Made by a program: the position numbers and the translations under genes
The notes under the pieces: model-generated
Told to the model about the DNA's origin: nothing
The model's database searches: none
The model's input: only the letters and a program-made list of their open reading frames with translations
Shown here: one piece after another, positions 12,770 through 31,717 of the stretch
Position numbering within the stretch: the stretch's first letter is position 1
Layout: each line of letters opens with the position of its first letter
IMG/VR virus record: IMGVR_UViG_3300033183_000299
Span: 1-43,507 of that record
Direction: 5' to 3' (one strand)
Source of the DNA: a virus
Length of the DNA: 43,507 nucleotides

Positions 12770-13060
12770 AAAAGTATCTCCTATTCCACTAACTAGTTTT
12801 TGTGGAATCTTAAATTTTTTTTTAGAAAATTTTTGTGAACCCTTGTTTTAGCTCGTGAAATGGGAATTTGCAAATCTGGAAAATTTCCCAGACGATGTTT
12901 GTGTACCTCGCTGCGCTCGTGGGGCTTTTTCGCCGGTTAAGTACTTATTTCATCGCTACGCCCGACCCCGTAGGGGGAGGGGGTGTATCGTTTCGCAACA
13001 ACCGAAAGAATAGAAACAAAAAAACAAAGCCAACGAAAAAGCCAACAAGCGAATACAACA

Positions 13061-13084
13061 AAGCCCCCGATGAACTCGGAGGCC
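13061..13084 (-). terminator. putative intrinsic terminator ending the island transcripts
   Basis: GCCCCCGA-tgaac-TCGGAGGC hairpin followed on the minus strand by a long U-rich tract (13010-13062). Confidence 0.45.
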
Positions 13085-13108
13085 TCGGCCTTGTAGCGTG
13101 TCTCTATG

Positions 13109-14128
13109 TTATCGTCTCCACCGACGTTTGGGAACGTGCTTTGCGAAGAACTCGGACTTGTCTATTGGCTCGGTAGCATCGGCATAGTCGGCACCTAGTG
13201 TTTTGGATAACCACCAATTTGGTAGGTCAATGGACTGGGGAGACATTTGAAAGGTAAGAAACTTATCGTCACCTGGATGGACTAGCACCCTACCACCATG
13301 TAAGGTCGTGCGCCTCGATAGTATAGAGTGTGGGATCCAAGCGACCGTATCGCCTACGATGATTTGGTAGGCTTTCGGATACTTGCCTGTCTCGGTCTTG
13401 TACGATGCCGAACCGTCCAAGTTTATACGACCCCACTGACGTTCCCATTCCACCGATGTTTTAGAGAACTCTTTAAGCCACACCTTGACGGTGGTACGGT
13501 CCCACTCTACACGTTCGGTAAACTCGCACGTATCGGAGATCACTTGCCAATCGTGCTCTTTTGCTTTTGCGTCTACACGCTCCCATTTCTCGGCATTGTA
13601 GTGCTCTTTGCATACTTCTAAACACTCGGTGATTTGGGCGATAACGTCAGTCATATCATAGTCCATGTAAAAGTCGGTAACGTGTAACTTGCCCATACGG
13701 TCGATATGATAGATGGTTCGGGTGTGTTCGTCAATAGCGAAGATCTGTCTAGCCCCGATACGTACGGTGCTATAACCGTTTGAGATAGCCACGTAAAACA
13801 GGGGATGATAGATATGCTTTGATTGCCCACGTGACGTTTCCATGATAAAGTCTCGGTGGATACGGCTATCTAGAATGTAGGACTGAACAAAGTCCAATAC
13901 CTTATTAGTTGGACAGTGTAAGGCACTGAATTTTCGGGGGCTATCGGTGTCTCGGTATTTGCGACCCTTTGTAACAAGGTTGTATACTGATAATACTGGT
14001 TTCATGGGGATCATAGAGGCTCCTATGGTTGCGATGTTTTCGATGGCTTGAAAGGTACAACCTACAACGTAGGCAATTGCGATGATGGTGATGGTGATGA
14101 TGGCGATGATTTCAAGGTCTTTCTTCAT
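13109..14128 (-). CDS. hypothetical protein with N-terminal hydrophobic segment
   Basis: Start MKKDLE behind GGAGA; downstream of an operator-promoter. Confidence 0.7.
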   Translation of the reverse strand: MKKDLEIIAIITITIIAIAYVVGCTFQAIENIATIGASMIPMKPVLSVYNLVTKGRKYRDTDSPRKFSALHCPTNKVLDFVQSYILDSRIHRDFIMETSRGQSKHIYHPLFYVAISNGYSTVRIGARQIFAIDEHTRTIYHIDRMGKLHVTDFYMDYDMTDVIAQITECLEVCKEHYNAEKWERVDAKAKEHDWQVISDTCEFTERVEWDRTTVKVWLKEFSKTSVEWERQWGRINLDGSASYKTETGKYPKAYQIIVGDTVAWIPHSILSRRTTLHGGRVLVHPGDDKFLTFQMSPQSIDLPNWWLSKTLGADYADATEPIDKSEFFAKHVPKRRWRR

Positions 14129-14399
14129 TGGGTCTCCATTGCTGTTGATTATACTATAATATAACATGGTAGCAACCACCTGTCAAATAAAATCTGTTAC
14201 TTTAACGGACAGAAACTGTCCGGGTCTCTACGATTCCGTATCTCTGGGAAGCCTGGAAGGCCTTGGCCTTTTTCGTGGGCAATTGGGAATGTATAGTTAT
14301 GTAAAGTTTTTTGGCACCTGATAGTTATGTTAAGTTTTTTGTAGGATCGCTACAACGTCGGGGCTACCGACGTTATAGAACCATGTCGCTGGAACCGAC

Positions 14400-15059
14400 T
14401 TAATAGGCATCGTTCAATTCACCCATGATATCGTCGGGGATGGTGTCGTCACCGTATTCTGCAAGCAAGCGGTCTGCAAGGCGTTTGGCTTCCTTTCGTT
14501 CCATAGCCAACCGACGTTTGCGTTCTGCCTTGCTTTCTCGATCGAGAGTAACAACGTCCACCACAACATCGGTATAGTCGGAAATGTAAGACATTGGACT
14601 GACCACTCGAACATACTCGTTAGGTTCGAACCGTTCGATAGCATCGACTTTCTCTTGCCATGTCTTTGTAAGTTTATCGGTGCTCTCGGACTTGTAGAGA
14701 CGTTCAATTGTGGCGATGGTGCTATCAATCGATGCGTTCGCACAAGCCGACAACATAGCAACTTTCTCTTGTGCCGTCAAGATGTCTGAACCATCGGCTA
14801 ATTCGTACTCATAGTCGTCATTCCACTGTGTGATCGCTACTCGCATGTTACCATCGGGTGTGTATCCCTTGACTTCTCCCATGCCGTAGGGGGTAGGTAG
14901 GGTAGCACCGATCTTAAATACATAGCCACCTACAAGGTTCTTACGGATACGGATAGGGCGACCGTCGGGATCGATACCATCTACTTTGTAGCCTGCGATA
15001 GTTGTGGGTGTCATGGACTTGATGAATGAGTAAGGTAAAGACTGTGTAGTCATGGGCAA
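14400..15059 (-). CDS. hypothetical protein
   Basis: 219-aa ORF behind an operator-promoter. Confidence 0.75.
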   Translation of the reverse strand: MPMTTQSLPYSFIKSMTPTTIAGYKVDGIDPDGRPIRIRKNLVGGYVFKIGATLPTPYGMGEVKGYTPDGNMRVAITQWNDDYEYELADGSDILTAQEKVAMLSACANASIDSTIATIERLYKSESTDKLTKTWQEKVDAIERFEPNEYVRVVSPMSYISDYTDVVVDVVTLDRESKAERKRRLAMERKEAKRLADRLLAEYGDDTIPDDIMGELNDAY

Positions 15060-15169
15060 TGTCCTTTGAAAGGGTTGTTGTTGAAGATGTTATAAGTGTA
15101 TCATGGTTGGAGAGAGTTGTCAAGTGGAGAAACGGTCAATTTTTGTCCACCTCTCCACAATGCCGAGAA

Positions 15170-15475
15170 TTAGAGCCATTCAGGTGCTTTACCGTCTTTT
15201 AAGAATTGACGATAGGCTGTATTGATACAGTCGTATTTCTCGAATAACTCATCATAATAGCGACTGTATTGGGCAAATCGTTCCTTATTATCGTCTGATG
15301 GATTATAATAGTATTGCATAGCAAGTTCATTCAAGCGGGCTTGAATAGTTGGGAAAGCCATTTGATGGGTGTGCAAGAGTTGTTGAAAGCGTATAAGTGT
15401 CTGACCATATGTAGACATATTCGATCCTGTGTTGAGTGTTGTGTTGACGTGGTGTGAAGATGGTTGTAAGGTCAT
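15170..15475 (-). CDS. hypothetical protein
   Basis: Start moved to MTLQP behind CAGGAG. Confidence 0.6.
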   Translation of the reverse strand: MTLQPSSHHVNTTLNTGSNMSTYGQTLIRFQQLLHTHQMAFPTIQARLNELAMQYYYNPSDDNKERFAQYSRYYDELFEKYDCINTAYRQFLKDGKAPEWL

Positions 15476-15549
15476 TGTTGTCTCCTGTGTTGTTGTTGAT
15501 GTTATCATTGTATCATGGTTGGAAAGGTTTGTCAAGTTCAATTCGGTCA

Positions 15550-15717
15550 TTATTTGTCCGATGGTTTGATTGATAGGGATTGAACGGAATAGTTTGAATA
15601 CATATGGTATGCACGTCTCTTGCAATTGCTAGTTGTATAGGCTTTCATGGTGTGGTTGTGACTCTCTAATTGCCCTTGACGATTGATGATAGTGATACGA
15701 ACGGTGAAGTTACTCAT
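15550..15717 (-). CDS. hypothetical protein (55 aa, not in ORF track)
   Basis: MSNFTVRITIINRQGQ...SDK; own promoter; stop lies inside the next operator. Confidence 0.6.
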   Translation of the reverse strand: MSNFTVRITIINRQGQLESHNHTMKAYTTSNCKRRAYHMYSNYSVQSLSIKPSDK

Positions 15718-16173
15718 TGGATTGTCCTGTGTTGTTGTGAGAGTTAGTATTGTATCATGTTCTCAAAGGTTTGTCAAGTAAAATCTGTTACTTTGCCGGT
15801 CAATTTCTGTCCGTTGCTTCTATGGTGGCGAAGGCCACGGCCTTGTAGAGAGCGCACTTTCTTTTTCGTTGGTATGGATTTGGGGATGGATAGTTATGTA
15901 AAGTTTTTTGGTCTCGTCAAGACTTTTCGTTGGTATGGTAACTTGCTATTCTAGCGTCTGTATGGGCAATTTGGTGTTAGTTCTCTCTAATAAAAGTACG
16001 ACTTTATAATGGGTATCGTCAAGAGCATTTAAGAGCCTTAAATGAGATGTAATAGTTATGTAAAGTTTTTTGCCACTGTATAGTTATGTAAAGTTTCTTG
16101 ATGACCCACGAAAAAGGTATAGGCCTTAAAAGTTGGTATACCTTTTTCATCTTCCATAGGAAGCACCTAACAT

Positions 16174-16374
16174 TTAAGGCTCTGAAACCATAGGTTTCGT
16201 ACCACGTACCCACTCACGTTCTGTGTAAAGACCATCGGTCTCACGTGCCTGATCAAGCATGATCATGTGTACCTTAAAATACGGTACTCCATCCAATTGA
16301 AAACCACGATGTTCAATCTTTGTAACCAATACAAGTCCGAACCGTTGGGTGTTGTAGAGATTGCCTACTTGCAT
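16174..16374 (-). CDS. SH3/KOW-like miniprotein
   Basis: MQVGNLY...FGLVLV. Confidence 0.65.
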   Translation of the reverse strand: MQVGNLYNTQRFGLVLVTKIEHRGFQLDGVPYFKVHMIMLDQARETDGLYTEREWVRGTKPMVSEP

Positions 16375-16550
16375 TGTGTATCCTGTGCTATGGGTGTGTA
16401 TTGGGAACTAAATGATGGGATGTTGATGTAACGTACTTTTCCGTTGGCGAATGAGTGTAAACCTATGCGGTTCTCGGACTTGTAGACGATCATGAATAGT
16501 CCGTCTAGTGCGAAGTGTGTGTATAAATCTCCGAATTCGTGGGTAGTCAT
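16365..16550 (-). CDS. SH3/KOW-like miniprotein
   Basis: HEFGDLY; GGAGA RBS. Confidence 0.65.
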   Translation of the reverse strand: MTTHEFGDLYTHFALDGLFMIVYKSENRIGLHSFANGKVRYINIPSFSSQYTPIAQDTQCK

Positions 16551-16753
16551 AGGGTCTCCGTAAAGGGGTCTAGAAAGGACTTTGGTGGCTTGGGGCGGTA
16601 GTAGGGTAGGGGGGTAGTGTACAAGGGCTTACAAGGGGTGTGAGGTAGGTTTCTGTGGACGTTCCATACCACCACACCTTTCACGCCCATATTTACAAGG
16701 GTATATACACTGGGTACATACAAGATAGTTAGGGGACTGTACAAGGATGGAAA

Positions 16754-17002
16754 CTACCTACCAAATAAATTCTCCAATGCTTGTTGTAGGGGATCACCTT
16801 TTGCCTTGCTAGGTTGGGGCTTTATCTTTGATCTACTGATGAAATCATCGGTGTCCGTTTCTAGGGCTGATAGCAAGACCCAATCGGTTTTATCGACTTG
16901 TGGAAAGTAACACATGCAAAGATAGTCTTTCATCTTCGGGGCTTTGGAAAGGATATAACCTTTACCGTATTCAACGTGGTATACTGTATCAAATTGGTTC
17001 AT
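16754..17002 (-). CDS. SH3-like miniprotein
   Basis: DTVYHVEYGKGYI (VxHxxxGxG motif). Confidence 0.7.
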   Translation of the reverse strand: MNQFDTVYHVEYGKGYILSKAPKMKDYLCMCYFPQVDKTDWVLLSALETDTDDFISRSKIKPQPSKAKGDPLQQALENLFGR

Positions 17003-17022
17003 GGGATCTCCGATGTTGTGGG

Positions 17023-17205
17023 TTATTGGTGTGTACGAATGAGTTGGACTTGATGTACTGGAAAGTTATAGAACTTACCACCTTTTGCTACGGTAACGGT
17101 ATTGCCACCACCAAAGGATACGAAACGATAGGTATTGTTGTTATAAATTGCAATCATGGGGATCTCCGATGTTATGGGTTTAGTCGTTGTTATACTTGTG
17201 TTCAT
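17023..17205 (-). CDS. hypothetical miniprotein
   Basis: ORF with GGAGA RBS before an internal Met; start uncertain. Confidence 0.5.
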   Translation of the reverse strand: MNTSITTTKPITSEIPMIAIYNNNTYRFVSFGGGNTVTVAKGGKFYNFPVHQVQLIRTHQ

Positions 17206-17340
17206 TGTTTAGTAGGTATGGGATATACAGGCTCATAGCCATAAGGTTTACACCGATCATTATAAGGGTATTCATTGGTGTCTCCGATTGATGGGGTTGC
17301 TTTGTTGATGTTATAAGTGTATCATGGTTTGGCTAAAACG

Positions 17341-17598
17341 TCAAGGACAAATTTTGACCGTTCCGTTAAACCATCGTATCTGACGACCTTTGTAGTTGAT
17401 AAACGCATAGTTGTGGTTGCCTGCGGTATCGTATTGTGCCATGAAACTCTCATACACACGATACCATCGCTTGCCACCGTTGATCTGAACCATCTGATCT
17501 GTCGGTATTCTCGAACCAAAACCGTTCTTGTTGATCGCTCGGTCGATTGATGATTGGATTAAAGGGTTTGATCGGGTCTTGGTTATCTTGATATCCAT
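17341..17598 (-). CDS. hypothetical protein
   Basis: Start MDIKIT behind GGAGA; ends VKICP* inside the next operator/-35. Confidence 0.7.
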   Translation of the reverse strand: MDIKITKTRSNPLIQSSIDRAINKNGFGSRIPTDQMVQINGGKRWYRVYESFMAQYDTAGNHNYAFINYKGRQIRWFNGTVKICP

Positions 17599-17697
17599 AG
17601 TGTCTCCAATGTTGTGGTGTTGTTCTGTTGATGTATATAGTGTATCATGAATGAGACCGTTTGTCAAGTGTCCAAACGGTCAATTTCTGTCCGACTG

Positions 17698-17976
17698 TTA
17701 ATGAATGTAAACATGTTCTGTCATGATCTCGCCATTTTGGGAATACAAGGTGATTGACGTACTAGCATGGATCGGCAAACCTGTTGACAGGTCGTCAAAG
17801 CGATACAGTTCCAATATGTAGCCATTATCGAAACGGTATTCAACGCTGTTGTCGGTGGTTCGGGTATGGTCGATGATTGCTTTGGTGTTGTGGAAGATGT
17901 CCATAATGATTGCAACAAGTTGCTTATTGATCTCTTTAATGTCGATGGTGTCTGTATTTTCCATTGATGTCTCCAT
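17698..17976 (-). CDS. hypothetical protein
   Basis: ORF behind an operator-promoter. Confidence 0.7.
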   Translation of the reverse strand: METSMENTDTIDIKEINKQLVAIIMDIFHNTKAIIDHTRTTDNSVEYRFDNGYILELYRFDDLSTGLPIHASTSITLYSQNGEIMTEHVYIH

Positions 17977-18186
17977 TGGATGGGGTTTGTCGTTGTTGAT
18001 GTTTATAGTGTATCATGTTCTCAAAGGTTTGTCAAGTAATAATTGTTACTTTGGCGGACAGTTTTTGACCGTTCTTCTATGGTCTCGGTGGTGCGAGAAT
18101 CGTGGGGAGATTGGATTGGGGTTTCCATTTATAGTTATGTAAAGTTTTTTGGTGGTCTCCGAAACTACCGACATGATAGAAGAATA

Positions 18187-18292
18187 CCCACGATAGAATA
18201 CCAAAGGCATCTATACGTGGGCACGTGTGGGAGATAGTCAAAGACTATCATGTATGGGTGCAAATAGCCTTTGGCTATCATGCCCATACATG
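18187..18292. other. cluster of three hairpins (structured element)
   Basis: CCCACGATAG/CTATACGTGGG; GATAGTC-aaa-GACTATC; CATGTATGGG...CCCATACATG enclosing ATAGCC-ttt-GGCTAT. Confidence 0.55.
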
Positions 18293-18305
18293 GGGGATTG
18301 ATGTA

Positions 18306-18653
18306 TCAATCCAATAGTGTGGTGAGCACGATCTCACACTTGTTCGGGTCATAGGTGGCTTCGCCACTTGCGAGAGCATCTACGAGCCATTTGGCTTCCT
18401 TGCGGGCTTCACGCAAGGTGTCATACTCTACAAATGCGTATGAGTGGATGCTCCCACTCTCCATAGCCATGCGTATGGAATACTTGCGATCTCGCTTGTA
18501 GTTGTGGTCGCTCGTGATGAACACGCAACCACCGAGCATATCACCGATAAGACGTGTGCCGAACATCTTCATGGTGTCTCGGTCGAACCAATGAAAGCCT
18601 TGTTGATAGTTGAATTGACGAAATTGAGAAAGAGATTTGTAATTGCCTAACAT
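18306..18653 (-). CDS. hypothetical phage protein
   Basis: HWFDRDTMKMFGTR...FITS motif; start moved to MLGNY. Confidence 0.7.
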   Translation of the reverse strand: MLGNYKSLSQFRQFNYQQGFHWFDRDTMKMFGTRLIGDMLGGCVFITSDHNYKRDRKYSIRMAMESGSIHSYAFVEYDTLREARKEAKWLVDALASGEATYDPNKCEIVLTTLLD

Positions 18654-18715
18654 GTCGCATCCTGTGGAATAGTTTTGGGGTTGGGGGTAGGGTAGTAGAT
18701 GGGTAGGGTATGTAC

Positions 18716-18736
18716 CCACACCCCTTTGGGGTGGGG
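18716..18736 (-). terminator. GC-rich hairpin after the AAA gene
   Basis: CACCCC-ttt-GGGGTG core; no clear U-tract. Confidence 0.35.
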
Positions 18737-18748
18737 CTTGACTGATGA

Positions 18749-19807
18749 TTAAGACGCGAGAATACGCATAAGGTAGTCTTTTGGCGTGCTACCGTCCGAC
18801 AAAGTAGCCGTATGGATACCATGAGCATTGTGTGCAACTTCCTTGCCTTTCGAGATAACTTGGAAGAACAGCATACCGAGTTCCGATGGTAGCGATACAA
18901 AGTATTCTGCTACGTTGGTCAATTCGGTCTTATCGAGTTTACGGTCGAATACCTTTGACTGCTTGAAACGTTCGATCAATGCGTTGTGATCGTTGATTGA
19001 GAAATCTTTGGTAAGTTTGTGCTTGCCATCTAGGATCTCTTCGACAGTCACGATCTTGTTGTAGTTCTTGACGTAGTCAACAAGGGCGACACCAGCCTCG
19101 AAACCAACGAAACCTGTGGTCAAGTGATACAAGATACCGTTGTTAGCGAGAGCCTTGATATCTTGGTCTCCGATAGTCTTGGACAATCGCTCCCATGAGC
19201 GTCTTGATGGGTAAACCTTGTTAGGCTCGTAGTCATCGTTGTGTTCAAGATGGTTGTGATTATCGTTGATAAAGTCCCAAATGACTTGACTGACGTTGCC
19301 ATCTGCCCATGATAACCAATCTTCTACGGTTGGCTTTACATCGAATACGGTGTAACGGTCAAGTTCTGCGGGATCCATTTCTCCGACTTGATACTGGTCT
19401 CCATGATCTCCACCACCGTTTACACAGGCAAAGATTACAGTGTCGGGGTGCAAGGTGTAGCCTGCAATCTTGCGACTATCACACAACTCAAAGATACCTT
19501 GGCGGACTTCCATTGTGGCACGATCGACTTCATCGAGAAACAGGATTACAGGGTTGTTACAGGCATCGTGCAACCATTCGGGAGCAAGCCATTGAGTGAC
19601 GTTGCCTTCGACTTTTGGGAGACCTAGCAAATCGCCTTCGGTCATTTGAGATGCACGACGTTCGACAACAGGGAGACCCATTTGATCGGCAATCTGATAC
19701 ACGATTGTGGATTTACCGATACCGTGACGACCACGAATAAGGATAGGGAATTTTGCTGAAATTACGGATGGAAGAACAGAGTTTAATACTGAATAAGAAA
19801 TAGCCAT
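18749..19807 (-). CDS. MoxR-like AAA+ ATPase
   Basis: Walker A GRHGIGKS, Walker B ILFLDEVDR, MDPAELDR, PSRRSW. Confidence 0.92.
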   Translation of the reverse strand: MAISYSVLNSVLPSVISAKFPILIRGRHGIGKSTIVYQIADQMGLPVVERRASQMTEGDLLGLPKVEGNVTQWLAPEWLHDACNNPVILFLDEVDRATMEVRQGIFELCDSRKIAGYTLHPDTVIFACVNGGGDHGDQYQVGEMDPAELDRYTVFDVKPTVEDWLSWADGNVSQVIWDFINDNHNHLEHNDDYEPNKVYPSRRSWERLSKTIGDQDIKALANNGILYHLTTGFVGFEAGVALVDYVKNYNKIVTVEEILDGKHKLTKDFSINDHNALIERFKQSKVFDRKLDKTELTNVAEYFVSLPSELGMLFFQVISKGKEVAHNAHGIHTATLSDGSTPKDYLMRILAS

Positions 19808-20035
19808 GATAAATATCCTTTGGATAGAGTAATGAAAGTAGACAGGATTGTCTGATGTAATTAGTGTAACAGGTTAGTGAAAGAAAGTCAAGGACAGAAA
19901 TTGTCCGTTTGAGATAGTGTCGGTAGTTACGGTGGATCGTTCATATTGTCTCCTAAATGGTGATTGGTTATCTCGTTGTTGATGTTTATAGTGTAACACC
20001 TTGATGAAAAAAGTCAAGGACAATTTTTGACCGTT

Positions 20036-20206
20036 TCAGTTTTGATAGGCAAATTCACCGTTAATCTCGACATTGTCATAGTCAATAGATACATTCGCTC
20101 CCATCGCTTGGGCACTGTTAGAACAGTATGCGATAAAACCAAAGGTGGTAGCAAGGATTGAGAAAAGCATGATAAAGCCTATGTGTTCATTGATAAAGTG
20201 TTTCAT
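20036..20206 (-). CDS. small membrane protein (56 aa, not in ORF track)
   Basis: MKHFINEHIGFIMLFSILATTFGFIAYC...; own promoter and GGAGA RBS. Confidence 0.6.
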   Translation of the reverse strand: MKHFINEHIGFIMLFSILATTFGFIAYCSNSAQAMGANVSIDYDNVEINGEFAYQN

Positions 20207-20275
20207 GGTGTCTCCAATGAAAGGGTTGTTTTGTTGATGTTATAAGTGTATCATGGTTTGGCTAAAACGTCAAGG

Positions 20276-20485
20276 TCAAAAATTGTCCGTTAAAGGTTTT
20301 GCGTCTAACATTCCACCAATACCGAATGTTTTATCTTCACCTGTGTCCATGTTATGGGCTTTGATCTTCATCGCCTTGTGGATATAGCAATAAAACGTAT
20401 CGGTGATAGCGATATAGGTTTGATAGCCATTGATAGAATGGGGGAATTTGAATAAGTCGCCTTTGGTCATTGTGAGTAAATCCAT
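20276..20485 (-). CDS. SH3/KOW-like miniprotein
   Basis: MTKGDLF; stop lies in the next operator. Confidence 0.65.
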   Translation of the reverse strand: MDLLTMTKGDLFKFPHSINGYQTYIAITDTFYCYIHKAMKIKAHNMDTGEDKTFGIGGMLDAKPLTDNF

Positions 20486-20566
20486 GTTGTCTCCATGTTT
20501 CGTTGTTGATGTTAGTAGTGTATCATGAATTGAATGATTTGTAAAGGTCAAAAAATGTCCGACTTG

Positions 20567-20938
20567 CTACAATCGGTATTTTCTGCGTGTTGTAGTGTGC
20601 TTCTCGGTAAGGTCTCGATACATTGGATGGGCTTGCAAGGTCTCGTCAGTCATCATCAATAATGCTGGATGATCGGCAATCTCGGATACATAGCCACTAA
20701 CACTGTCCCAATCTCTCGAACGGATGCCGAATGATTTACCTGTGGGGATATGAGTTACGCACCATTCGCCACCATATCGGGATCGGTTTCCATCTTGTAT
20801 CTCTTGGTGCTCTCCCAAAGGTCGGTGGATAGCCATCGGGTACTGTACTACCCCTACGATGTTCTCGATAATTGTGATACCATCACGACTTTGCCATGCT
20901 CGCAAGTTGATAGTGTCTTTTCGGGTCGGTTGTTTCAT
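20567..20938 (-). CDS. hypothetical phage protein
   Basis: WCVTHIPTG motif; own promoter. Confidence 0.75.
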   Translation of the reverse strand: MKQPTRKDTINLRAWQSRDGITIIENIVGVVQYPMAIHRPLGEHQEIQDGNRSRYGGEWCVTHIPTGKSFGIRSRDWDSVSGYVSEIADHPALLMMTDETLQAHPMYRDLTEKHTTTRRKYRL

Positions 20939-20983
20939 GTTGTCTCCATGTTTCGTTGTTGATGTTTATAGTGTATCATGTTC

Positions 20984-22907: not shown

Positions 22908-22915
22908 GCTGTCTC

Positions 22916-23257: not shown

Positions 23258-23336
23258 TGGTGTCTCCGTTGTTGTTTTGTTGATGGTAGTAGTGTATCAT
23301 GGTAGTAGGGATTTGTAAAGGACAAAAAATGTCCGT

Positions 23337-23881: not shown

Positions 23882-23892
23882 GATTGTCTCCG

Positions 23893-24039
23893 TTATAGGT
23901 GGAATAGGTTGTGTCCCCACTGCCCTGTTATTTCGCCACTGTCGATCCATTTAACAAGCCAACGGTCAATAACCCCGACTTGTCTAACGACAATGCCGAT
24001 CGTTCCATATTTGTCTTTTACAAGGTCTCCGATGTTCAT
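23893..24039 (-). CDS. SH3/KOW-like miniprotein
   Basis: MNIGDLVKDKYGTIGIVV...LVKW. Confidence 0.7.
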   Translation of the reverse strand: MNIGDLVKDKYGTIGIVVRQVGVIDRWLVKWIDSGEITGQWGHNLFHL

Positions 24040-24115
24040 GTTGTCTCCATGTTTCGTTGTTGATGTTATAAGTGTATCATGGCTTGGTTGATTTGTAAAG
24101 GACAAAAACTGTCCG

Positions 24116-24268
24116 TTATGCTATCACCTCGAAAGTTTCAGCCCAATGCCACTTCTCTAAACCGTCTGCCCACCGTATTCTGTACAGATTGTGTAGGTTG
24201 GACTTTTCAAGCACGACACCCACACAGCCATCGAAGGGGGATTGGACTAATGATCCGATCTGTATCAT
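24116..24268 (-). CDS. SH3/KOW-like miniprotein (50 aa, not in ORF track)
   Basis: MIQIGSLVQSPFDGCVGVVL...YRIRWADG; ATGA overlap with the upstream gene. Confidence 0.65.
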   Translation of the reverse strand: MIQIGSLVQSPFDGCVGVVLEKSNLHNLYRIRWADGLEKWHWAETFEVIA

Positions 24269-24597
24269 AACTTACCCTTTGAATTTCCGTTACCACTGTT
24301 CTCTCCAATCTTTGTGAAAGCAACATCATGGACAGACCCACTGCGTTGGTTATTCCAACCTGACCATTGATCCCATCCTTTGCGATAAAGGTCAGCGTCA
24401 TCTTCGTTCTGAAACTTTAAGATTTGGATACAAGCCATCTTACCATCGCCACTAGAAACGGCTCGAACGGTCTCTTTGATCTCGGTGCCCAATTCAAGAA
24501 CACAGTCGGGGCACTCGTTAATCTTACCACCAACACGTCTTTTGATTTGTGAGTTTAGATCGAATGTGTCGTCACAGTGAATACATATCTTGTTCAT
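24265..24597 (-). CDS. Zn-ribbon protein
   Basis: CIHC...ECPDC. Confidence 0.75.
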   Translation of the reverse strand: MNKICIHCDDTFDLNSQIKRRVGGKINECPDCVLELGTEIKETVRAVSSGDGKMACIQILKFQNEDDADLYRKGWDQWSGWNNQRSGSVHDVAFTKIGENSGNGNSKGKL

Positions 24598-24661
24598 GGT
24601 CTCTCCATGTTTGGGGGTTTTCGTTGTTGATGTTAGTAATGTATCCGATTGAGAGAAAAAG

Positions 24662-24919
24662 TCAAGGACAATTTTTGACCGTTATGATCTTGTCTCGACC
24701 CTGTCGGGTAAATGTAAAGGTCATGTCGTTACAGTGTAGGTCTCCACCCTTAAACTCATCCCATAGGCTCTCCACGTCTGTGTTCGTGAGTGCCTGTGAT
24801 ACGGATGAACTCGCTTGCGTAAAGTCATTACAGTCCCCTACCCACCCTTGTTCTCCGTAGTCGTCAGCCAATTCTTTCGCTGTTTTGAGAATGATCTCAA
24901 ACTTTTGTTGTGTATTCAT
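24662..24919 (-). CDS. hypothetical protein
   Basis: Start MNTQQ behind GGAGA; ends VKNCP* in the operator/-35. Confidence 0.7.
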   Translation of the reverse strand: MNTQQKFEIILKTAKELADDYGEQGWVGDCNDFTQASSSVSQALTNTDVESLWDEFKGGDLHCNDMTFTFTRQGRDKIITVKNCP

Positions 24920-25094
24920 GTTTGTCTCCGATGTTGACGATGCCACAGTCTTTTAGGTATCCCTTTTCAAAGGCATCGTGGTTAAAAATATGGTGTCTTG
25001 CGTAGTTGTGGAAGAAACGGACAACCCACTTGCCATCCGTTTCCTGTAAGGCATAACCAGCCCCCACTTTATCGTGAGTTACTAGGTGTATCAT
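24897..25094 (-). CDS. hypothetical miniprotein
   Basis: Start MIHLV behind GGAGAG. Confidence 0.6.
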   Translation of the reverse strand: MIHLVTHDKVGAGYALQETDGKWVVRFFHNYARHHIFNHDAFEKGYLKDCGIVNIGDKHEYTTKV

Positions 25095-25404
25095 TTTTGC
25101 TCTCCACCAAAGGACAAAGTCCATGACGTTGGGCTTCATCAACATTCATCCAGTTAGGTCTAGGGACTTTCTTTTTCGTCAGACGTACATGGTTGCTCGT
25201 TGTTTGCGAGATATAGTGCCCACCACCGTAGGTGTAGTCGTAGACTAGGGTAGCACCTTGTCCGTACCCATCGGGGATATGTTCGGCAATTCGAGTATCG
25301 AATGACCATAGGCTTTGCCCATCGGTTCGCAAAGTTTTTGATTTACATGGTTTCATTTCCATGAAGTTTTGGATGACTGTTTCATCAGTTGTAAAATAAG
25401 ACAT
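25069..25404 (-). CDS. hypothetical phage protein
   Basis: LRTDGQSLWSFDTRIA...SQTTSNHV. Confidence 0.75.
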   Translation of the reverse strand: MSYFTTDETVIQNFMEMKPCKSKTLRTDGQSLWSFDTRIAEHIPDGYGQGATLVYDYTYGGGHYISQTTSNHVRLTKKKVPRPNWMNVDEAQRHGLCPLVESKNDTPSNSR

Positions 25405-25489
25405 ATAATCTCCGTTGTTAGTCTAGTTTGTGTATAGTATTATAACATGTTCTAAAAGGTTTGTCAAGTAATTTCTTTACCTTTGTCGG

Positions 25490-26461
25490 TCATTTTTTGA
25501 CCGACTTGGCATACCACTTGTCTACAAGTCCGACAAAACCTTTGGCTTTTAGTTGTTCATGAGATCGTTTCTTACACACAAACTGCATAGCCTTTGCGTG
25601 GGCTTGGTCGATCCATTCGCTAGCCATAGGCTTTTCGCTAGGCGAGATTACACTGATACTCTGATAGTCAGACCATCCACCCTTTTGCGAAATAAGACCG
25701 TTAATGCCGATTGATTTGATCAAGTCATTATTCAGTGTGATTGTCTGTTGACGACCATCTACGATACATTCGATAACCACGTTCTGTTGTAGTGTGTGAT
25801 CAAGTGTTGATCGCCAACGACTTTGCATTGGCTTGTAGTCAGTGTCGGCACACATGGACAGTTGATCCCAATTGATCTTTGTAACAATACCAGTCTTTTT
25901 GACGATTGTAGCATTTTGACCCCATCCTTGTCTCTCGGTCAAGGACAGCAAAGCACCCTCGCTAATGCCGAGTTCACCGACAAACTTATCGTAAAACTGT
26001 TGTCGCCACTCTCGGTTGGCTTGGATCGCTTTGGCTACAAAGGTTTCCATTGGCGAACAATTTCTACGGTTGTGATCATGAGACCCACAGAAGCCACACT
26101 TGGCTTTGGCTTTGTTCTTACCTTTGGCTTTGGCTAGTGCCTTTCCTTTGGCTACGACTTGCTTGTTGTGGGCTTTCTCGCACTCGGCATACCACTTGCC
26201 CCATTGAGATGGGTGCTTGAACCATTGAGCAGTGCTTGCTTGTGATTTCCAATTATTTTGCCCTTGTGCTTTGGGCTTTGGGCTGTTTGTCCAGTTGTTC
26301 GGATCGGAACAAGGAATGTTAAACTTTTGGAACATAGCCCAGTCGGTGGCGACATGGGGACAGTCGGTAGCACGATGTTCTACATCACCACAATAAGAGC
26401 ATGATGGTTTTGAGTTTCCACTGGAAGTGCCGTTGTCTTGTTGATTGTTGAATATTTGCAT
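25490..26461 (-). CDS. double CCHC zinc-knuckle protein (paralog A)
   Basis: CSYCGDVEHRATDC and CGFCGSHDHNRRNC. Confidence 0.8.
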   Translation of the reverse strand: MQIFNNQQDNGTSSGNSKPSCSYCGDVEHRATDCPHVATDWAMFQKFNIPCSDPNNWTNSPKPKAQGQNNWKSQASTAQWFKHPSQWGKWYAECEKAHNKQVVAKGKALAKAKGKNKAKAKCGFCGSHDHNRRNCSPMETFVAKAIQANREWRQQFYDKFVGELGISEGALLSLTERQGWGQNATIVKKTGIVTKINWDQLSMCADTDYKPMQSRWRSTLDHTLQQNVVIECIVDGRQQTITLNNDLIKSIGINGLISQKGGWSDYQSISVISPSEKPMASEWIDQAHAKAMQFVCKKRSHEQLKAKGFVGLVDKWYAKSVKK

Positions 26462-26554
26462 GGGTTCTCCGTTGCAAAGGGTTGTTGTTTTGTTGATGTT
26501 AGTAGTGTATCATGGTTTGGATAGTTTGTCAAGTAATTTCTTTACCTTTGACGG

Positions 26555-26767
26555 TCAGTTTTTGTCCGTTTCGTCATCAGTACCGATTGGCTCGATGTGT
26601 TTTGTAAGGTGGATTTCTTTCTCGCAAGATACAAAGCCTGTGCGATAGCCTGTAAGCCACAGGATCATCCATGCTTTGTAGCCTGTATGGTTTGGGTGTT
26701 CCACCTTGACGATCCCGATCATGTCGGGATCAATCGTGGATTGTACAAGGTCGCCAACCGTTAGCAT
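26555..26767 (-). CDS. SH3/KOW-like miniprotein
   Basis: MLTVGDLVQS...IGIV...ILWLTG. Confidence 0.7.
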   Translation of the reverse strand: MLTVGDLVQSTIDPDMIGIVKVEHPNHTGYKAWMILWLTGYRTGFVSCEKEIHLTKHIEPIGTDDETDKN

Positions 26768-27690
26768 GGGAGACCTACCGATTTCTTAAACGCATTGATC
26801 TTCTTGTCTTTGTCGGCATGTGGGTAAAAGTCTCTAATGTAAGCACCCAAATACGACCATAAGTCTTGACCCTTGCGTTTCTTCATGACCCAGTCAATCG
26901 GCTCAAACTCGCCATCAAACCACTCTTGGCTCATGATGTTCGGAGCAGGACTGATGATCTCGGTGATTAGCCCATTATCCCAATAGCCATGTGGTTCTTG
27001 GACACCATGTTCTTTGCCGAGATAGTCTCGCTCGTTTCGGCTAACGTCAAAGTGAAACAGTTTTGGACTACCATTTGATTTACCCACAACGACCTTTTGA
27101 CCATCCAATAGAAAGCCCATTCGTAGGTTGGTGCGATAGTCGCTCCATGTGCTTTGTAGGTTCGTTAGAGAGATGGACTTGGGGTCTAACTCGGTCATTA
27201 GAGAAACCTTTGGAACATAGTCGCCTTGCTCTCGGTCATACTGTCGTAGGGATACCAGTGCCCCAGCACCCAACCCCATGCCTTTGATGAAACGGTCGTA
27301 AAAGTCTTGGCGATAAGCCTTGTTGGCTTGCTCGTAAAGGTGCTTAAACTTGGTCATAGACTTACAATTTCTACGGTTGTGGGTTGTCTTACCACAGAAG
27401 CCACACTTTGGTTTCTTGCGTGGTTTTTTAGCCTTTGTCTTTTCGGTTTCACCATAGTATTTCTCGGCTTTGGCTTGACCATATCGGACATACCACTGTT
27501 CTAGGTGGGTGCTACCAGTACCATACCACTGTGTAACTCTCGTCAATAGCGATGTGTCGATCTTGTCGCCACGTTGATCTTGCTCGTAGTGGGCTTTAAG
27601 GGTGGGGCAACGGTTGATACGGTGTCCGTTTTCGTAGCAATAGCCACAGGCAAAGTGAGATTTTTGATTGCGATTTTCATATAGTTTCAT
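26761..27690 (-). CDS. double CCHC zinc-knuckle protein (paralog B)
   Basis: CGYCYENGHRINRC and CGFCGKTTHNRRNC. Confidence 0.8.
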   Translation of the reverse strand: MKLYENRNQKSHFACGYCYENGHRINRCPTLKAHYEQDQRGDKIDTSLLTRVTQWYGTGSTHLEQWYVRYGQAKAEKYYGETEKTKAKKPRKKPKCGFCGKTTHNRRNCKSMTKFKHLYEQANKAYRQDFYDRFIKGMGLGAGALVSLRQYDREQGDYVPKVSLMTELDPKSISLTNLQSTWSDYRTNLRMGFLLDGQKVVVGKSNGSPKLFHFDVSRNERDYLGKEHGVQEPHGYWDNGLITEIISPAPNIMSQEWFDGEFEPIDWVMKKRKGQDLWSYLGAYIRDFYPHADKDKKINAFKKSVGLPC

Positions 27691-27754
27691 GGGTTCTCCA
27701 TTGAGTGGGGTTGTTTTGTTGATGTTAGTAGTGTATCATGGTAGGGGTAGTTTG

Positions 27755-27898
27755 TCAAGTATTGGAACGGTCAGTTTTTGTCCGTTTGTCGTATTTCTCA
27801 TAGATTTCGTTCATCTTCTTTCGGTGGTCTCGGACAATCAGCCAAAGAGCAAGTGCGAAACACACGTCAGATGCGAGTAGTAAGAGTATTGTAGTCAT
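27755..27898 (-). CDS. small membrane protein
   Basis: MTTILLLLASDVCFALALWLIV; start moved. Confidence 0.5.
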   Translation of the reverse strand: MTTILLLLASDVCFALALWLIVRDHRKKMNEIYEKYDKRTKTDRSNT

Positions 27899-27912
27899 TT
27901 GGTCTCCGATGT

Positions 27913-28164
27913 TCATTGTTCTTCTCCGTTGTCTTGGGGGGTATCGGTAGATGGGGCAGGTCGTAGTGTACCGTCTGATAGCATGCGAGTGACGGCTCTT
28001 TGAAACCAACCTTGTAATTTCCACACTTCTCCCGAGTCAACAAGGTGTTGCCATGCTTGAATGTAGGACATGTCGGGGGTTTCATCCATAGCACCCTCGG
28101 CTATCATGGTTGCGTTGTAGAGCATTTCGGCTTTTTGCTTTTTAGTTAGTTTCTTTTTAGTCAT
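27913..28164 (-). CDS. hypothetical phage protein
   Basis: AWQHLVDSGEVWKLQGWFQR. Confidence 0.75.
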   Translation of the reverse strand: MTKKKLTKKQKAEMLYNATMIAEGAMDETPDMSYIQAWQHLVDSGEVWKLQGWFQRAVTRMLSDGTLRPAPSTDTPQDNGEEQ

Positions 28165-28251
28165 TGTTGTCTCCGAGTTTTGTTGTTGATGTTTGTATTG
28201 TATCATGGTAGTAGGGGTTTGACAAGTCAGTATTCGGACAGTTTTTGTCCG

Positions 28252-28458
28252 TTAGTCTATAACCTCGAACCGTTCGGCTACACCATCTTTTGAGATTGTG
28301 AACCGTTGATTTATTCTGTCGGTGCGAGCGAGCCTGTAACCATCTACGATCCGAACACTTTGACCATATTGTCTCCGTATCTTGATGTGTTCCATGACCA
28401 TGAAAGGTACATTGGTTGGGGAACAAATGCCTTTTAGTAGTGTGCCGATGGGTATCAT
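28252..28458 (-). CDS. SH3/KOW-like miniprotein
   Basis: MIPIGTLL; AAGGAG RBS. Confidence 0.65.
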   Translation of the reverse strand: MIPIGTLLKGICSPTNVPFMVMEHIKIRRQYGQSVRIVDGYRLARTDRINQRFTISKDGVAERFEVID

Positions 28459-28637
28459 TTGATCTCCTTTGGTTGTCTGTGTAGTTGTTGTGGGATAAAG
28501 GTCATCGTCAATTTGTTGTTATTGGTGGACATGACTTGGATATGCCGATAGTCTCCGATAATACCGATTACCAATAGTGGGTGGCTACACCATCCCTTGC
28601 CATGTAGCCATACAAGGTCTCCGATTTCATGTTTCAT
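28455..28637 (-). CDS. SH3/KOW-like miniprotein
   Basis: MKHEIGDLVWL. Confidence 0.7.
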   Translation of the reverse strand: MKHEIGDLVWLHGKGWCSHPLLVIGIIGDYRHIQVMSTNNNKLTMTFIPQQLHRQPKEIK

Positions 28638-28714
28638 GTTGTCTCCATGTCTCATTGTTGATGTTAGTAGTGTATCATGTTGAGAGAAAAAAGCAAGGAC
28701 AGAAATTGTCCGTT

Positions 28715-28930
28715 CTATTCTTTTGTCGCTTTGTCGTCATTTGCTTTCTCCATGTTAAAGCCCATAGATGGGCGTTCTTCGGGTTTTTCGTCTTGGGGTA
28801 GGGGTCTAGAACCCATGCCCATCATCATGGCTTTCATGGGGTTCTGTGAGCCTGATAGGGCTATTACTGTAAGGACTTTGTCTACCAGTTCGTCTGATAG
28901 GTCGATTGTTAATTTGATTTGATTACTCAT
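28715..28930 (-). CDS. hypothetical miniprotein
   Basis: 71-aa ORF, AGGAG RBS. Confidence 0.7.
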   Translation of the reverse strand: MSNQIKLTIDLSDELVDKVLTVIALSGSQNPMKAMMMGMGSRPLPQDEKPEERPSMGFNMEKANDDKATKE

Positions 28931-29112
28931 TGTTGTTCTCCTAGTTTGGTTATATCTTCTTTTCCATATCTCAATGTTCTTCCATCGTCAAAAATGCGAA
29001 CGTCACAAGACCAAGTGCCCACATTCACTACGATAGCCATTTTGCCGACATATCGTGAATTAGCAAAGTCACAGTGTCTAATTCTTACAAGGTCTCCGAT
29101 TTCATGTTTCAT
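28927..29112 (-). CDS. KOW/SH3-like miniprotein
   Basis: MKHEIGDLVRI...YVGKMAIVV. Confidence 0.72.
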   Translation of the reverse strand: MKHEIGDLVRIRHCDFANSRYVGKMAIVVNVGTWSCDVRIFDDGRTLRYGKEDITKLGEQQ

Positions 29113-29167
29113 GTTGTCTCCATGTCTCATTGTTGATGTTAGTAGTGTATCATGTTGGTTGAAAAAG

Positions 29168-29368
29168 TCAAGGACAGTTTTTGTCCGTTTGATTTAGTGG
29201 TTCGAGAAACAGGGGTAGTTGAACCCTTTCAGGCCCATCCGACCATCGTACCACGAAGTATTCAGTCATGCCCATCGTTAGATTGGTATGCTTCATTACG
29301 GTTCTCACGATGATACCAACATCTCTTTCATATTTGTGTCTTACAAGGTCTCCGACTTTAAGGTTCAT
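29168..29368 (-). CDS. SH3/KOW-like miniprotein
   Basis: MNLKVGDLVRHK...VGIIV...VRWSDG; ends DKNCP*. Confidence 0.72.
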   Translation of the reverse strand: MNLKVGDLVRHKYERDVGIIVRTVMKHTNLTMGMTEYFVVRWSDGPERVQLPLFLEPLNQTDKNCP

Positions 29369-29376
29369 GCTTTCTC

Positions 29377-29583
29377 CTATGGTTGGGGATGGTAGTTTAT
29401 CTTAAAGTGTTTGCGTGGGTATTCTAGGTGCTTACCTACCCATGTGGGTTCTAGGTCATACCTTATTAGTTTACACCAAACAGATGCATCATCGGTTTCC
29501 ACGACAAGACCCAACATTGTATACTTATGGTTACCTACTAGGTCTCCGACTTGTGGCTCAATGTCTAGTGTTGCGTAAGTCAT
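29377..29583 (-). CDS. SH3/KOW-like miniprotein
   Basis: PQVGDLV...LGLVV. Confidence 0.7.
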   Translation of the reverse strand: MTYATLDIEPQVGDLVGNHKYTMLGLVVETDDASVWCKLIRYDLEPTWVGKHLEYPRKHFKINYHPQP

Positions 29584-29821
29584 TTTCCCCCCTTTTCATC
29601 AGTTTGGCGATCTTCTTCTGTCGCTCCCACTGATCCACTTGTTGTTCTGTTTCTAATACTTTTAATTCTTCTTCATTTAGGGGCACATAGTCCCCATCCG
29701 AGCCTATGAGTAGCCCTGTGTATCTACCGTAGGGGTAGCCTTGCCCTAGATCGTCAACAACGATAGCAAGGTGGTAGTCGCCCTTGAACTCAAATCCTAC
29801 CATATCTCCGACTTTTATCAT
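29558..29821 (-). CDS. SH3/KOW-like protein
   Basis: MIKVGDMV...LAIVV; start moved. Confidence 0.7.
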   Translation of the reverse strand: MIKVGDMVGFEFKGDYHLAIVVDDLGQGYPYGRYTGLLIGSDGDYVPLNEEELKVLETEQQVDQWERQKKIAKLMKRGENDLRNTRH

Positions 29822-29973
29822 ATTATCTCCCATATATAATCGTGTACTTGTGACTTTTCGCATGTATCCAGTAGATACACTCTTATCCAACCATCCCATC
29901 GGGACATGCCGAGAAAGATTGCGTATGTGTCGTATTTTTCTGTATAGATAAGGTCTCCAACTTTGTAATTCAT
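29818..29973 (-). CDS. SH3/KOW-like miniprotein (51 aa, not in ORF track)
   Basis: MNYKVGDLIYTEKYDTYAIFLG...; ATGA overlaps at both ends. Confidence 0.7.
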   Translation of the reverse strand: MNYKVGDLIYTEKYDTYAIFLGMSRWDGWIRVYLLDTCEKSQVHDYIWEII

Positions 29974-30137
29974 GCTATCTTCTCCAAGTTTTTAATGTAA
30001 ATGTGTTGCGTTGAGCCACTTTTCCATCCAGTGATCCAGTGGATTTCCAAAAAATTCAAAACAGGTGGGCGACCAGTCGATGTGACCACACCGAACCATC
30101 CACTCTTGCTACGAACAAGCGATCCTATTTCCATCAT
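29970..30137 (-). CDS. SH3/KOW-like miniprotein
   Basis: MMEIGSLVRSKSGWFGVV...IHW. Confidence 0.7.
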   Translation of the reverse strand: MMEIGSLVRSKSGWFGVVTSTGRPPVLNFLEIHWITGWKSGSTQHIYIKNLEKIA

Positions 30138-30331
30138 AATTTCTCCAAACATTCTTGATTTTTCCATATCCAATCGGTTTGCTGATTGGATAGAAACCAA
30201 CGAACCTTTATCATGTGATACTGTGGGTTTTTACTTGCGTTGTGCTTCTCGGCAACGATGATGCCATGATCTATGATCTCGTTATCGAAGCCGACCAATC
30301 TTATAAGGTCTCCAATTTTTGCGTTTTTCAT
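30134..30331 (-). CDS. SH3/KOW-like miniprotein
   Basis: MKNAKIGDLIRL...HGIIV...KVRW. Confidence 0.72.
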   Translation of the reverse strand: MKNAKIGDLIRLVGFDNEIIDHGIIVAEKHNASKNPQYHMIKVRWFLSNQQTDWIWKNQECLEKL

Positions 30332-30379
30332 GTTATCTCCGTTGTTGATGTTTGTAGTGTATCATGTTGTGGTGAAAAG

Positions 30380-30580
30380 TCAAGGACAGTTTTTGACCGT
30401 TTCTAAAAAGTCTCGGTCGGTTCGGACTTTCTGTTGGTCTTTGAACCAATAGACCCAAACCACGTTGTTGTTTTGATCGCACAGATCGGTGATTATACCA
30501 ACGTCATCCGTTATTCTTCGCCATCCACCGAGAGCCAATGATCCACGCATGGACAGTCTTACTAAATCACCTACAATCAT
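30380..30580 (-). CDS. SH3/KOW-like miniprotein
   Basis: MIVGDLVRL...VGIIT...VYW; ends VKNCP*. Confidence 0.72.
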   Translation of the reverse strand: MIVGDLVRLSMRGSLALGGWRRITDDVGIITDLCDQNNNVVWVYWFKDQQKVRTDRDFLETVKNCP

Positions 30581-30783
30581 GCTCGCTCCTGTCGGACATA
30601 TCCGAGTTTATTTAAAAAGTGTTTGTGTATATCTTCATGGAGATAAAAATGACCACCTTTGATCTTTGCGTTCTGTCGCTTGATCTTGATCCAACCCTCC
30701 GTATCAACCGATACAATCTCATAGGTGATCAATTCGCCATCCTGACGTATTGTCCATGACTTTCCTATCATATTATTACTCAT
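30577..30783 (-). CDS. hypothetical miniprotein
   Basis: ATGA-coupled ORF. Confidence 0.7.
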   Translation of the reverse strand: MSNNMIGKSWTIRQDGELITYEIVSVDTEGWIKIKRQNAKIKGGHFYLHEDIHKHFLNKLGYVRQERA

Positions 30784-30986
30784 GCGTTCTCCTTATTATA
30801 TTCATGTGCATGGACAAACTCTGTCTCATTAAAGTACCATGCCTGCTGATGTGCTATCATAAACACGTTCATGTTTACCATTCGCTCGTTAGGCACACTC
30901 ATTACTATTCCAATCTCGCCTGTGTAGATTGATGTATAGCACGAATGAGCCAATACCACGATGTCTCCAACCTTAAACTTACTCAT
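30780..30986 (-). CDS. SH3/KOW-like miniprotein
   Basis: MSKFKVGDIVV...TGEIGIVM. Confidence 0.72.
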   Translation of the reverse strand: MSKFKVGDIVVLAHSCYTSIYTGEIGIVMSVPNERMVNMNVFMIAHQQAWYFNETEFVHAHEYNKENA

Positions 30987-31099
30987 AATCTCTCCGTTGT
31001 TTGTGTTGTTTTCTTATCGTATCACGTTTGGAATGGTTTGTCAAGTAATTTCTTTAAGTTTCTCGGTCAAAAAATGTCCGTTTGATAGAAAGAGTTTGG

Positions 31100-31389
31100 A
31101 TAGTTATGTAAAGTTTTTTGCTTTTCTATTTGACAAAGCCCCGAAAACGTGTTACATTAGAGGGTAGCGGACAGAAATTGTCCTCTCGATTATTCACAAC
31201 CCTTGAACGGAGATTATGTTAAGTTTTTTTTTGGACTTTGCTTTCATAGTTATGTTAAGTTTTTTGAAACAAGTTGGAGATCGTCTCGAACTAATGGGCT
31301 TCGTTTGTCCGTTGGTCGGTCGGTCTTTTCTTTGTTTTGCTTTCCATAGTTATGTAAAGTTTTTTGTGGATAGTTATGTAAAGTTTTTT
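31100..31389 (+). repeat. 20-bp direct repeat ATAGTTATGT(A/T)AAGTTTTTT, right cluster (5 copies)
   Basis: 31100, 31210 (degenerate), 31246, 31346, 31370. Confidence 0.9.
31130..31184 (+). promoter_or_regulatory. divergent plus-strand promoter with downstream operator
   Basis: TTGACA(31130)-17 bp-TGtTACATT; operator at 31168-31184; GGAG-ATG at 31216. Confidence 0.65.
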
Positions 31390-31417
31390 GGATGCCCACT
31401 TAATCGTTGGTAACCAA

Positions 31418-31717
31418 CTATTTCGTTGGATCGTCTTTATCGTTGGTGTAGCCAAAAAGTCGGTCAAGTGCCTCATAGAACTCGACACCCATCGAGAGAA
31501 CATCGATGTCTGGTTCAATATTTAAATTAAACTCTGGGCACAATAAGAAATGAAAATGAGGATCGAACACGAGGAAGTGATAGTGTTCGGTCTCCAAACA
31601 AAAACAGTAGAAGAACCTATTCTCTCTTATCACTTGGGCTATTAGGTAGCCATATATGTGGCCGCGTTCGTTCACGCCAATGAGGTCGCCCTTCTTAAAA
31701 ACGTAAGCTGAAGACAT
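31418..31717 (-). CDS. hypothetical protein (SH3-like N-terminus)
   Basis: FKKGDLIG. Confidence 0.65.
   Translation of the reverse strand: MSSAYVFKKGDLIGVNERGHIYGYLIAQVIRENRFFYCFCLETEHYHFLVFDPHFHFLLCPEFNLNIEPDIDVLSMGVEFYEALDRLFGYTNDKDDPTK

Follow-up and report, generated by a model that had tools for sequence, protein, structure and literature searches.

The stretch of DNA analyzed here, referred to throughout as the window, comprises positions 1 to 43,507 (43,507 nucleotides) of IMG/VR virus record IMGVR_UViG_3300033183_000299 and is the start of the 183,930-bp contig of this phage (G000). It carries a block of about 40 minus-strand genes, most of them tiny, which we refer to as the early-gene island (Table 1) and which was found to be purged of restriction-type words. 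The initial annotation had placed two successive AGCT copies at 12850 and 31706, and a site scan returned the same positions, leaving a gap of 18,856 bp. The second-longest AGCT gap genome-wide measured 1,670 bp, and 606 AGCT sites were counted in total; the eight copies annotated in the first 1.7 kb were likewise recovered. The number of AGCT sites expected in the gap was 69 (log10 P about -30).

Besides AGCT, more than 15 restriction-type words were depleted in the island. No CTNAG site occurred in 12,232-32,306 (flanking sites at 12231 and 32307), as had been annotated. GCNGC, which had also been described as absent, was missing from 12,911-31,660 and was retained at the edges (12910 and 31661). 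The tetramers reported as sparse were counted at 3 (CCGG), 9 (GGCC), 4 (GCGC), and 2 (CGCG) within the segment, compared to 101 for GATC, which had been called common. Further depleted words included CTNNAG (0/50), GGNCC (2/42), CCNGG (3/26), GANTC (7/55), GGNNCC (8/48), CCNNGG (5/44), CCTC (14/130), and CCGC (12/50), and the depletion extended to CCTTC, CCAGA, ACTCC, GAAGAC, and CCATGG. Palindromic hexamers were found at 4.9/kb in the island compared to 13.6/kb elsewhere. The words GATC, CATG, and TCGA were retained. We take most of the purged words to be Type II sites (AluI, DdeI, Fnu4HI, Sau96I, ScrFI, HpaII, HaeIII, HinfI, NlaIV, BsaJI, MnlI, AciI, BbsI, and NcoI types), and they are presumably also mostly targets of cytosine methyltransferases. 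Restriction avoidance that is confined in this way to 10% of a genome escapes whole-genome counts.

The part from 12.9 to 14.4 kb was leaky, with residual sites mostly located in non-coding palindromic stretches. Three intergenic AGGCC-N-GGCCT palindromes (13080-13091, 14258-14269, and 15832-15843) comprise six of the nine residual GGCC sites of the segment. It is probable that these three palindromes are functional and have been retained despite selection.

Table 1. Positions of the purged segment, its border elements, and selected genes within the window.
Feature	Position	Strand	Basis or remark
AGCT-free segment (early-gene island)	12854..31705	.	AGCT site scan
Strictly purged core	14,400-31,470	.	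Two-change-point fit, 16-word panel; 1.8 sites/kb vs 35 outside
Proximal C-rich mark CTACTACCCCCCTACCCCCCT, 21-mer	31905..31925	-	Exact match in 17 IMG/VR contigs
Distal cis element	12860..12983	-	C5-T-C5 run 12983-12973, GAAATAAGTACTT box 12951, GAGCGNAGCG box 12918, AAATTT..CCAGA box
Proximal cluster of five XerD-arm-like 11-mers, TTATGT(A/T)AAGT	31104..31384	+	Starts 31104, 31214, 31250, 31350, 31374
Distal group of six XerD-arm-like 11-mers	14297..18145	+	Starts 14297, 14325, 15894, 16056, 16084, 18135
Co-oriented sigma70-type promoter array with 22 palindromic operator sites	14158..31183	-	Consensus matches
Outward-facing sigma70-type promoter with adjacent operator	31130..31158 (31130-31183 with operator)	+	Conserved in relative G004
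AAA_5 (MoxR-type) ATPase	18749..19807	-	In every examined island covering this part
DUF2201 metallopeptidase-vWA protein, 411 amino acids, largest island open reading frame	21401..22636	-	In every examined island covering this part
Basic (+17) protein, two CCHC zinc knuckles and SH3-like domain	25490..26461	-	Virus-only family, widely conserved in islands
Zinc-knuckle paralogue (+16)	26761..27690	-	Paralogous to the protein at 25490..26461
Last island gene, 339 amino acids, N-terminal hydrophobic helix	13109..14128	-	Confident model; close relatives only
Two small unpurged open reading frames between proximal mark and purge start	31418..31931	-	Purge starts 250-500 bp inside the mark

Selection acts on double-stranded DNA words

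We assessed the contribution of codon use by permuting synonymous codons inside the island, a shuffle that preserves the proteins and the local codon use. The island coding DNA was expected to hold 33 AGCT, 29 CTNAG, 28 CTNNAG, and 16 CCGG sites, and none of these words was observed there. In the remaining genome, the observed/expected ratios for the same four words ranged from 0.9 to 1.1. The initial annotation had named expected word frequencies or codon usage as grounds on which its observation would fall; neither was found, since none of the 69 expected AGCT sites was present and the purge survived the shuffle. Asymmetric words were low on both strands (CCTC 4/41 and GAGG 10/73), and the 5.6 kb of island DNA outside long open reading frames was purged as well. 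We determined that the purge is selection on double-stranded DNA words, independent of codon use. A cause at the RNA level was ruled out because both strands and the non-coding DNA are purged; the accompanying check returned no Rfam match. The island also sets itself apart in dinucleotide use, codon use, and GC skew. It was noted that the GC skew flips at 15000-21000 with the gene strand constant, and that the relative G011 lacks this flip.

Purged word sets differ among relatives

The same early block was purged in ten relatives (G001, G002, G004, G005, G009, G011, G013, G017, G018, and G019), each with its own word set, and L360-L367 likewise carry purged islands with word sets of their own. 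The depleted words include CCGG (3/86), AATT (13/111), and GANTC (2/74) in the G011 island, GANTC (0/59), CCNNGG (0/42), and ACGT (1/25) in G013, CATG (0/71) and TTAA (3/85) in L360, and GATC (4/50) in G009. These differences were visible within orthologous genes. The AAA and DUF2201 genes of this phage and of G002, which share 86-88% protein identity, contain CTNAG 0 vs 5 times and CCTC 1 vs 20 times, and the 17 GATC sites in the orthologues here compare with none in G009, the sole lineage with zero. Because different words are purged in orthologous genes, a single imported block is excluded, and the selection is continuing and lineage-specific. Host methylomes could be paired with uncultured phages on the basis of such missing-word sets. 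As a separate observation, GATC was purged around the AAA/DUF2201 genes of distant relatives (G008 near 98-108 kb and G009 at 149-161.7 kb).

Some words were removed from whole genomes. AGCT was lost outside the island as well in G017, G018, and G019 (L293-L306; 0/385, 0/148, and 3/129, respectively), and in these three genomes GANTC was removed from the island only. TGNCA was depleted across the whole genome of G000, with 288 sites compared to about 800 expected (~0.35), and this depletion is common to G002, G019, G020, and G001 and not seen in G011, G005, and G018. It forms a second avoidance tier that ignores the island. Because AGCT in G017 and TGNCA here were removed genome-wide, whatever protection the remainder has must leave some enzymes able to act.

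Conserved cis marks delimit the island

The edges of the purge were found to coincide with conserved DNA elements, and the segment boundaries could accordingly be refined to about 12.98 kb and about 31.92 kb. The distal element was aligned across 13 contigs with different flanking genes and is present in G005 and L360/L361 too. The purge stops sharply at its C-run, with 0 vs 15 sites/500 bp in G011 and 0 vs 23 in L360. No stable hairpin was predicted in this element (z 0.14 and -0.68), and its GAGCGNAGCG box may resemble plasmid priming sites, a likeness for which no supporting paper was found. The proximal mark is conserved as DNA across differing gene contexts. There the purge begins 250-500 bp inside the mark, just outside the 11-mer cluster, and the pooled site density fell from 15.7 sites/kb outside the mark to 5.8 inside. 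The two C-rich marks are co-oriented, and the mark-to-mark lengths were 18.9, 19.3, 20.0, 20.1, about 20.5, and 24.0 kb despite highly variable gene content. In some relatives the proximal mark was lengthened to a G/C-rich array of CCCTACTA units in tandem that is reminiscent of telomeric repeats (G020 at 46175-46216, G018 near 34263, and G011 near 175012).

Compared with the dif site of E. coli or B. subtilis, the XerD-arm-like 11-mer has a single mismatch to the XerD arm (PMC3025954). All 11 copies in the 184 kb lie on one strand and within the island, grouped toward both of its ends, and in most close relatives the proximal cluster is likewise present, at a distance of 570-1,070 bp from the proximal mark on its inner side. 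A reading of the marks' G-rich strand as FtsK-orienting (KOPS) sequence was rejected beyond resemblance because control octamers were equally frequent in islands (24 in the island compared to 29 and 25 for the controls).

Promoters, operators, and genes of the island

The overlap reported initially between the purged interval and an operator-promoter island was recovered. All 22 operator sites fall within 14,207-31,169, and 19 of the 30 genome-wide matches to the strong sigma70-type pattern lie in the island, with the other 11 outside; these promoters are consensus matches, and their style in the island is the same as in the rest of the genome. The outward promoter near the proximal end would transcribe over the XerD-like boxes toward the proximal mark.

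Three families were the most widely shared among the islands, namely the AAA_5 ATPase, DUF2201, and the zinc-knuckle/SH3-like proteins. Structure comparison of the zinc-knuckle protein returned weak SH3-like matches and nothing else. At E<=0.001, neither PDB nor BFVD yielded a match for the 339-residue product of the last island gene (best Z 5.3; atlas matches below 0.9). The proximal part of the island (27900-31000) holds many paralogues of 50-90 amino acids that start with an MxxGDLV-type motif.

The ends of the contig overlap by 11 bp, and joining them restores a continuous PIN-PhoH reading frame, so that the assembly is circular. The terminase is of the T4 gp17 type and the capsid is T4-like, with the best matches to immuto, Mel-JY01, and RM378. 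Among isolates, Flavobacterium phage immuto 2-6A and Mel-JY01 are the closest, at 46% terminase identity. The close relatives are environmental contigs, and the sequencing runs containing part of the genome were mostly marine. A Flavobacteriaceae host was considered on the basis of a single terminase match in a bin; this match lies on a 4.6-kb contig that is probably mis-binned and was not used.

The island as candidate first-entering DNA

The initial annotation proposed that this DNA meets host restriction and that the remainder of the genome is protected. This proposal is well supported, if indirectly, by a purge that acts on double-stranded DNA, is independent of codons, differs among lineages, and has sharp edges at cis marks. 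Restriction enzymes are the presumed agent, as the words match known Type II sites, and first injection would be the most economical cause of the purge. We lean, with modest confidence, toward a fixed segment that enters first and is arrested by a hard injection stop of the T5 kind, here in a phage group unrelated to T5; the order of entry, the pausing, and a product acting against restriction are parts of this account that we infer. The DNA from the mark at about 31.9 kb to that at 12.98 kb would enter the cell ahead of the rest and then be held. During this time it would be open to cleavage by Type II-like enzymes of the host, and host sigma70 RNA polymerase would transcribe it from about 20 promoters of one orientation. 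At least one product of the block would counter restriction in a broad manner, and the remaining 165 kb would follow once safe. Selection would thereby strip from the block alone every word that the lineage's hosts can cut.

Entry from the 31.9-kb end is slightly favored over entry from the 12.98-kb end because transcription would run with entry and because the promoter-less tip of 250-500 bp could be clipped harmlessly. In this orientation, entry would stop at the complex element at 12.9 kb. With entry from the 12.98-kb end, the XerD-like cluster would lie just ahead of the stop, like the DnaA boxes of T5 (bioRxiv 10.1101/866236). The two marks also predict exactly where genome ends or stops should lie, namely near 12.98 kb and 31.92 kb. 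A fuller scenario, which we hold to be plausible and somewhat short of probable, is that a widespread marine clade of myophages with T4-type terminases independently evolved T5-like staged injection of a terminal segment of roughly 20 kb, limited by C-rich marks and XerD-arm-like boxes and encoding a broad Type II blocker, with 165 kb keeping all of its sites. If this is true, the missing words of each lineage would read out the restriction repertoire of its host.

Avoidance of sites in first-entering DNA is already known. In T5/BF23 (PMC10644984) and in Murciavirus (PMC12455610), sites are lethal only in the first-injected DNA. How T5 injection stops and restarts, and how the later DNA is protected from Type II enzymes, are still open questions (PMC10644984). 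This island resembles T5/BF23 in that restriction sites are barred from one early segment and tolerated elsewhere (PMC10644984), in having a segment read by the host polymerase (here judged from promoter consensus matches), and in the repeat-rich non-coding DNA near the boundary, which holds DnaA boxes in T5 and XerD-arm-like boxes here. By analogy, the island may work like T5 first-step DNA. However, the segment is 19-24 kb long compared to 9.6 kb in T5, and the purge covers more than 15 words compared to CCNGG alone in T5 with the same panel. The phage is not a member of the T5 family, because its terminase is of the T4 gp17 class and it has no A1: the A1 transfer gene (556 amino acids in T5) had no counterpart in the segment, where five open reading frames exceed 300 amino acids without an A1 match. 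Among the about ten island proteins that were scanned, none matched A2 or dmp.

The leading regions of T7-like phages (Ocr; Murciavirus, PMC12455610) are similar in their co-oriented host promoters, in the dependence of sensitivity on site position, and in their variable small early genes. They differ in spanning a few kb and in facing Type I enzymes, whereas about 20 kb and Type II-like words are concerned here; the far edge here is step-like, and no Ocr-like protein was found, with the small open reading frames not all profile-searched. The most acidic small open reading frame of the island carries a charge of -12 over 113 amino acids, compared to about -28 for Ocr. Jumbo phages with T4-type terminases (Muenster, PMC8407769; fEgEco12, PMC13070987; PA5oct, PMC7318152) share the terminase class and the segment size, and the PA5oct repeat holds early genes. 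Their mapped repeats are unpurged, however, and terminase identity to this phage is 29-45% over partial matches.

T4-type phages carry hyperplastic early regions (PeSL) of small variable genes behind repeated host-type promoter cassettes. To our knowledge, these have not been described as purged of sites or bounded by end marks. The open-access literature that was searched contained no description of a purge of more than 15 words in a marine clade with T4-type terminases, combined with a conserved mark at either edge and word sets particular to each lineage. A second, unrelated clade with mapped edges, cis marks, and three shared gene families provides a short list of testable parts.

Several observations weigh against a held first-entering segment. 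Most phages with a T4 gp17-type terminase package by headful with random ends, and under that mode a purge of this sort could not arise (PMC12455610). The mapped repeats of 20-39 kb in the jumbo phages fEgEco12, PA5oct, and fENko-Kae01 were not purged with the same panel, and in T5 first-step DNA CCNGG alone was depleted (3/17). The distant relatives G006 and G010 keep the AAA/DUF2201 genes with no detectable purge, G006 having the C-run mark as well, and the nearest isolates, immuto 2-6A and Mel-JY01, lack a comparable island. Of the island proteins, about ten were scanned, and none resembled a known anti-restriction or DNA-transfer protein.

The initial annotation also suggested a long terminal repeat, and we put the chance that the segment is one at about even. 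A T4 gp17-like terminase can accompany a 20-kb terminal repeat (PMC8407769 and PMC13070987), and the segment here is of matching size. However, four known long repeats lack a comparable purge, so that a purge alone does not predict a repeat. No sequencing run contained half of the window's words (best share 0.19). Among the relatives' contigs from three samples, depth was similar inside and outside the island, with no twofold step and no end pile-up; such depths are not copy number and come from mixed strains, and DNA from inside cells would show no depth step even if a repeat existed. These contigs often break within the island yet mostly continue through both marks, and for this reason the breaks give no end signal. 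The open-access literature that was searched yielded nothing on the genome termini of immuto or Mel-JY01.

Alternative explanations for the purge

The step-like edges at cis elements and the headful-type terminase would also fit entry of the whole genome, with all but the early block shielded by a protein coat or by a membrane/protein compartment and the marks bounding the part open to host RNA polymerase. The enzyme-selective protection of the remainder, as seen from the genome-wide loss of AGCT in G017 and of TGNCA here, agrees with such a shield. Sigma70-type promoters are also found outside the island, however, and no candidate for a shell or coat protein emerged, with no search aimed at one. 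We know of no precedent for a shield bounded by sequence, and we consider this explanation unlikely.

Slightly less likely is continuous, transcription-driven entry as in T7, from a fixed first end with neither a pause nor a long repeat, where the purged DNA would be that which enters before anti-restriction builds up. About 20 promoters all pointing in one direction would suit such entry, as would the residual sites of G000 and G002, which become more numerous in the direction of the 12.9-kb end. The far edge is instead all-or-none at a conserved element (0 to 15 sites/500 bp in G011 and 0 to 23 in L360/L361), which counts against it because an effect of timing should blur the edge.

We regard as improbable a chemical difference in which the remainder is modified and the island is not, or in which the loss of words serves to evade methylation by the host (along with methyl-directed nucleases or interference with promoters) and not cleavage. 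The cytosine methyltransferase targets that we take to prevail among the purged words, together with the retention of GATC, CATG, and TCGA, could be read in this way, as could a cluster of glycosyltransferase and sugar-synthesis genes at 171-181 kb and the DpdA of the distant isolate immuto. No base-modification pathway was recognised in this genome, however, in which DpdA, PurZ, ThyA-type, and C5 methyltransferase genes were not found. Relatives purge adenine-type words as well (AATT, TTAA, CATG, and GATC), and no route is known by which a genome is modified except for one block. The genome carries one N6/N4 methyltransferase; searches for the Tet/JBP and HMUDK families gave no match and, with their controls also blank, were uninformative.

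Foreign origin of the block, or its emergence as a side effect of composition or codon use, to which the island's distinct dinucleotide use, codon use, and GC skew might point, is very improbable and was largely refuted by the shuffle and by the word differences between orthologues, the block being syntenic across the clade and its promoter style common to the rest of the genome.

Additional gene clusters of the genome

A cluster of genes for GDP-sugar synthesis and for glycosyl-, fucosyl-, acetyl-, and sulfotransferases, along with FkbM genes, was located at 171031-180645 of G000. Just outside the distal mark, four unpurged open reading frames of similar size were found at 6687-11154, two of which matched the T4 Alt/Mod ADP-ribosyltransferase family weakly.

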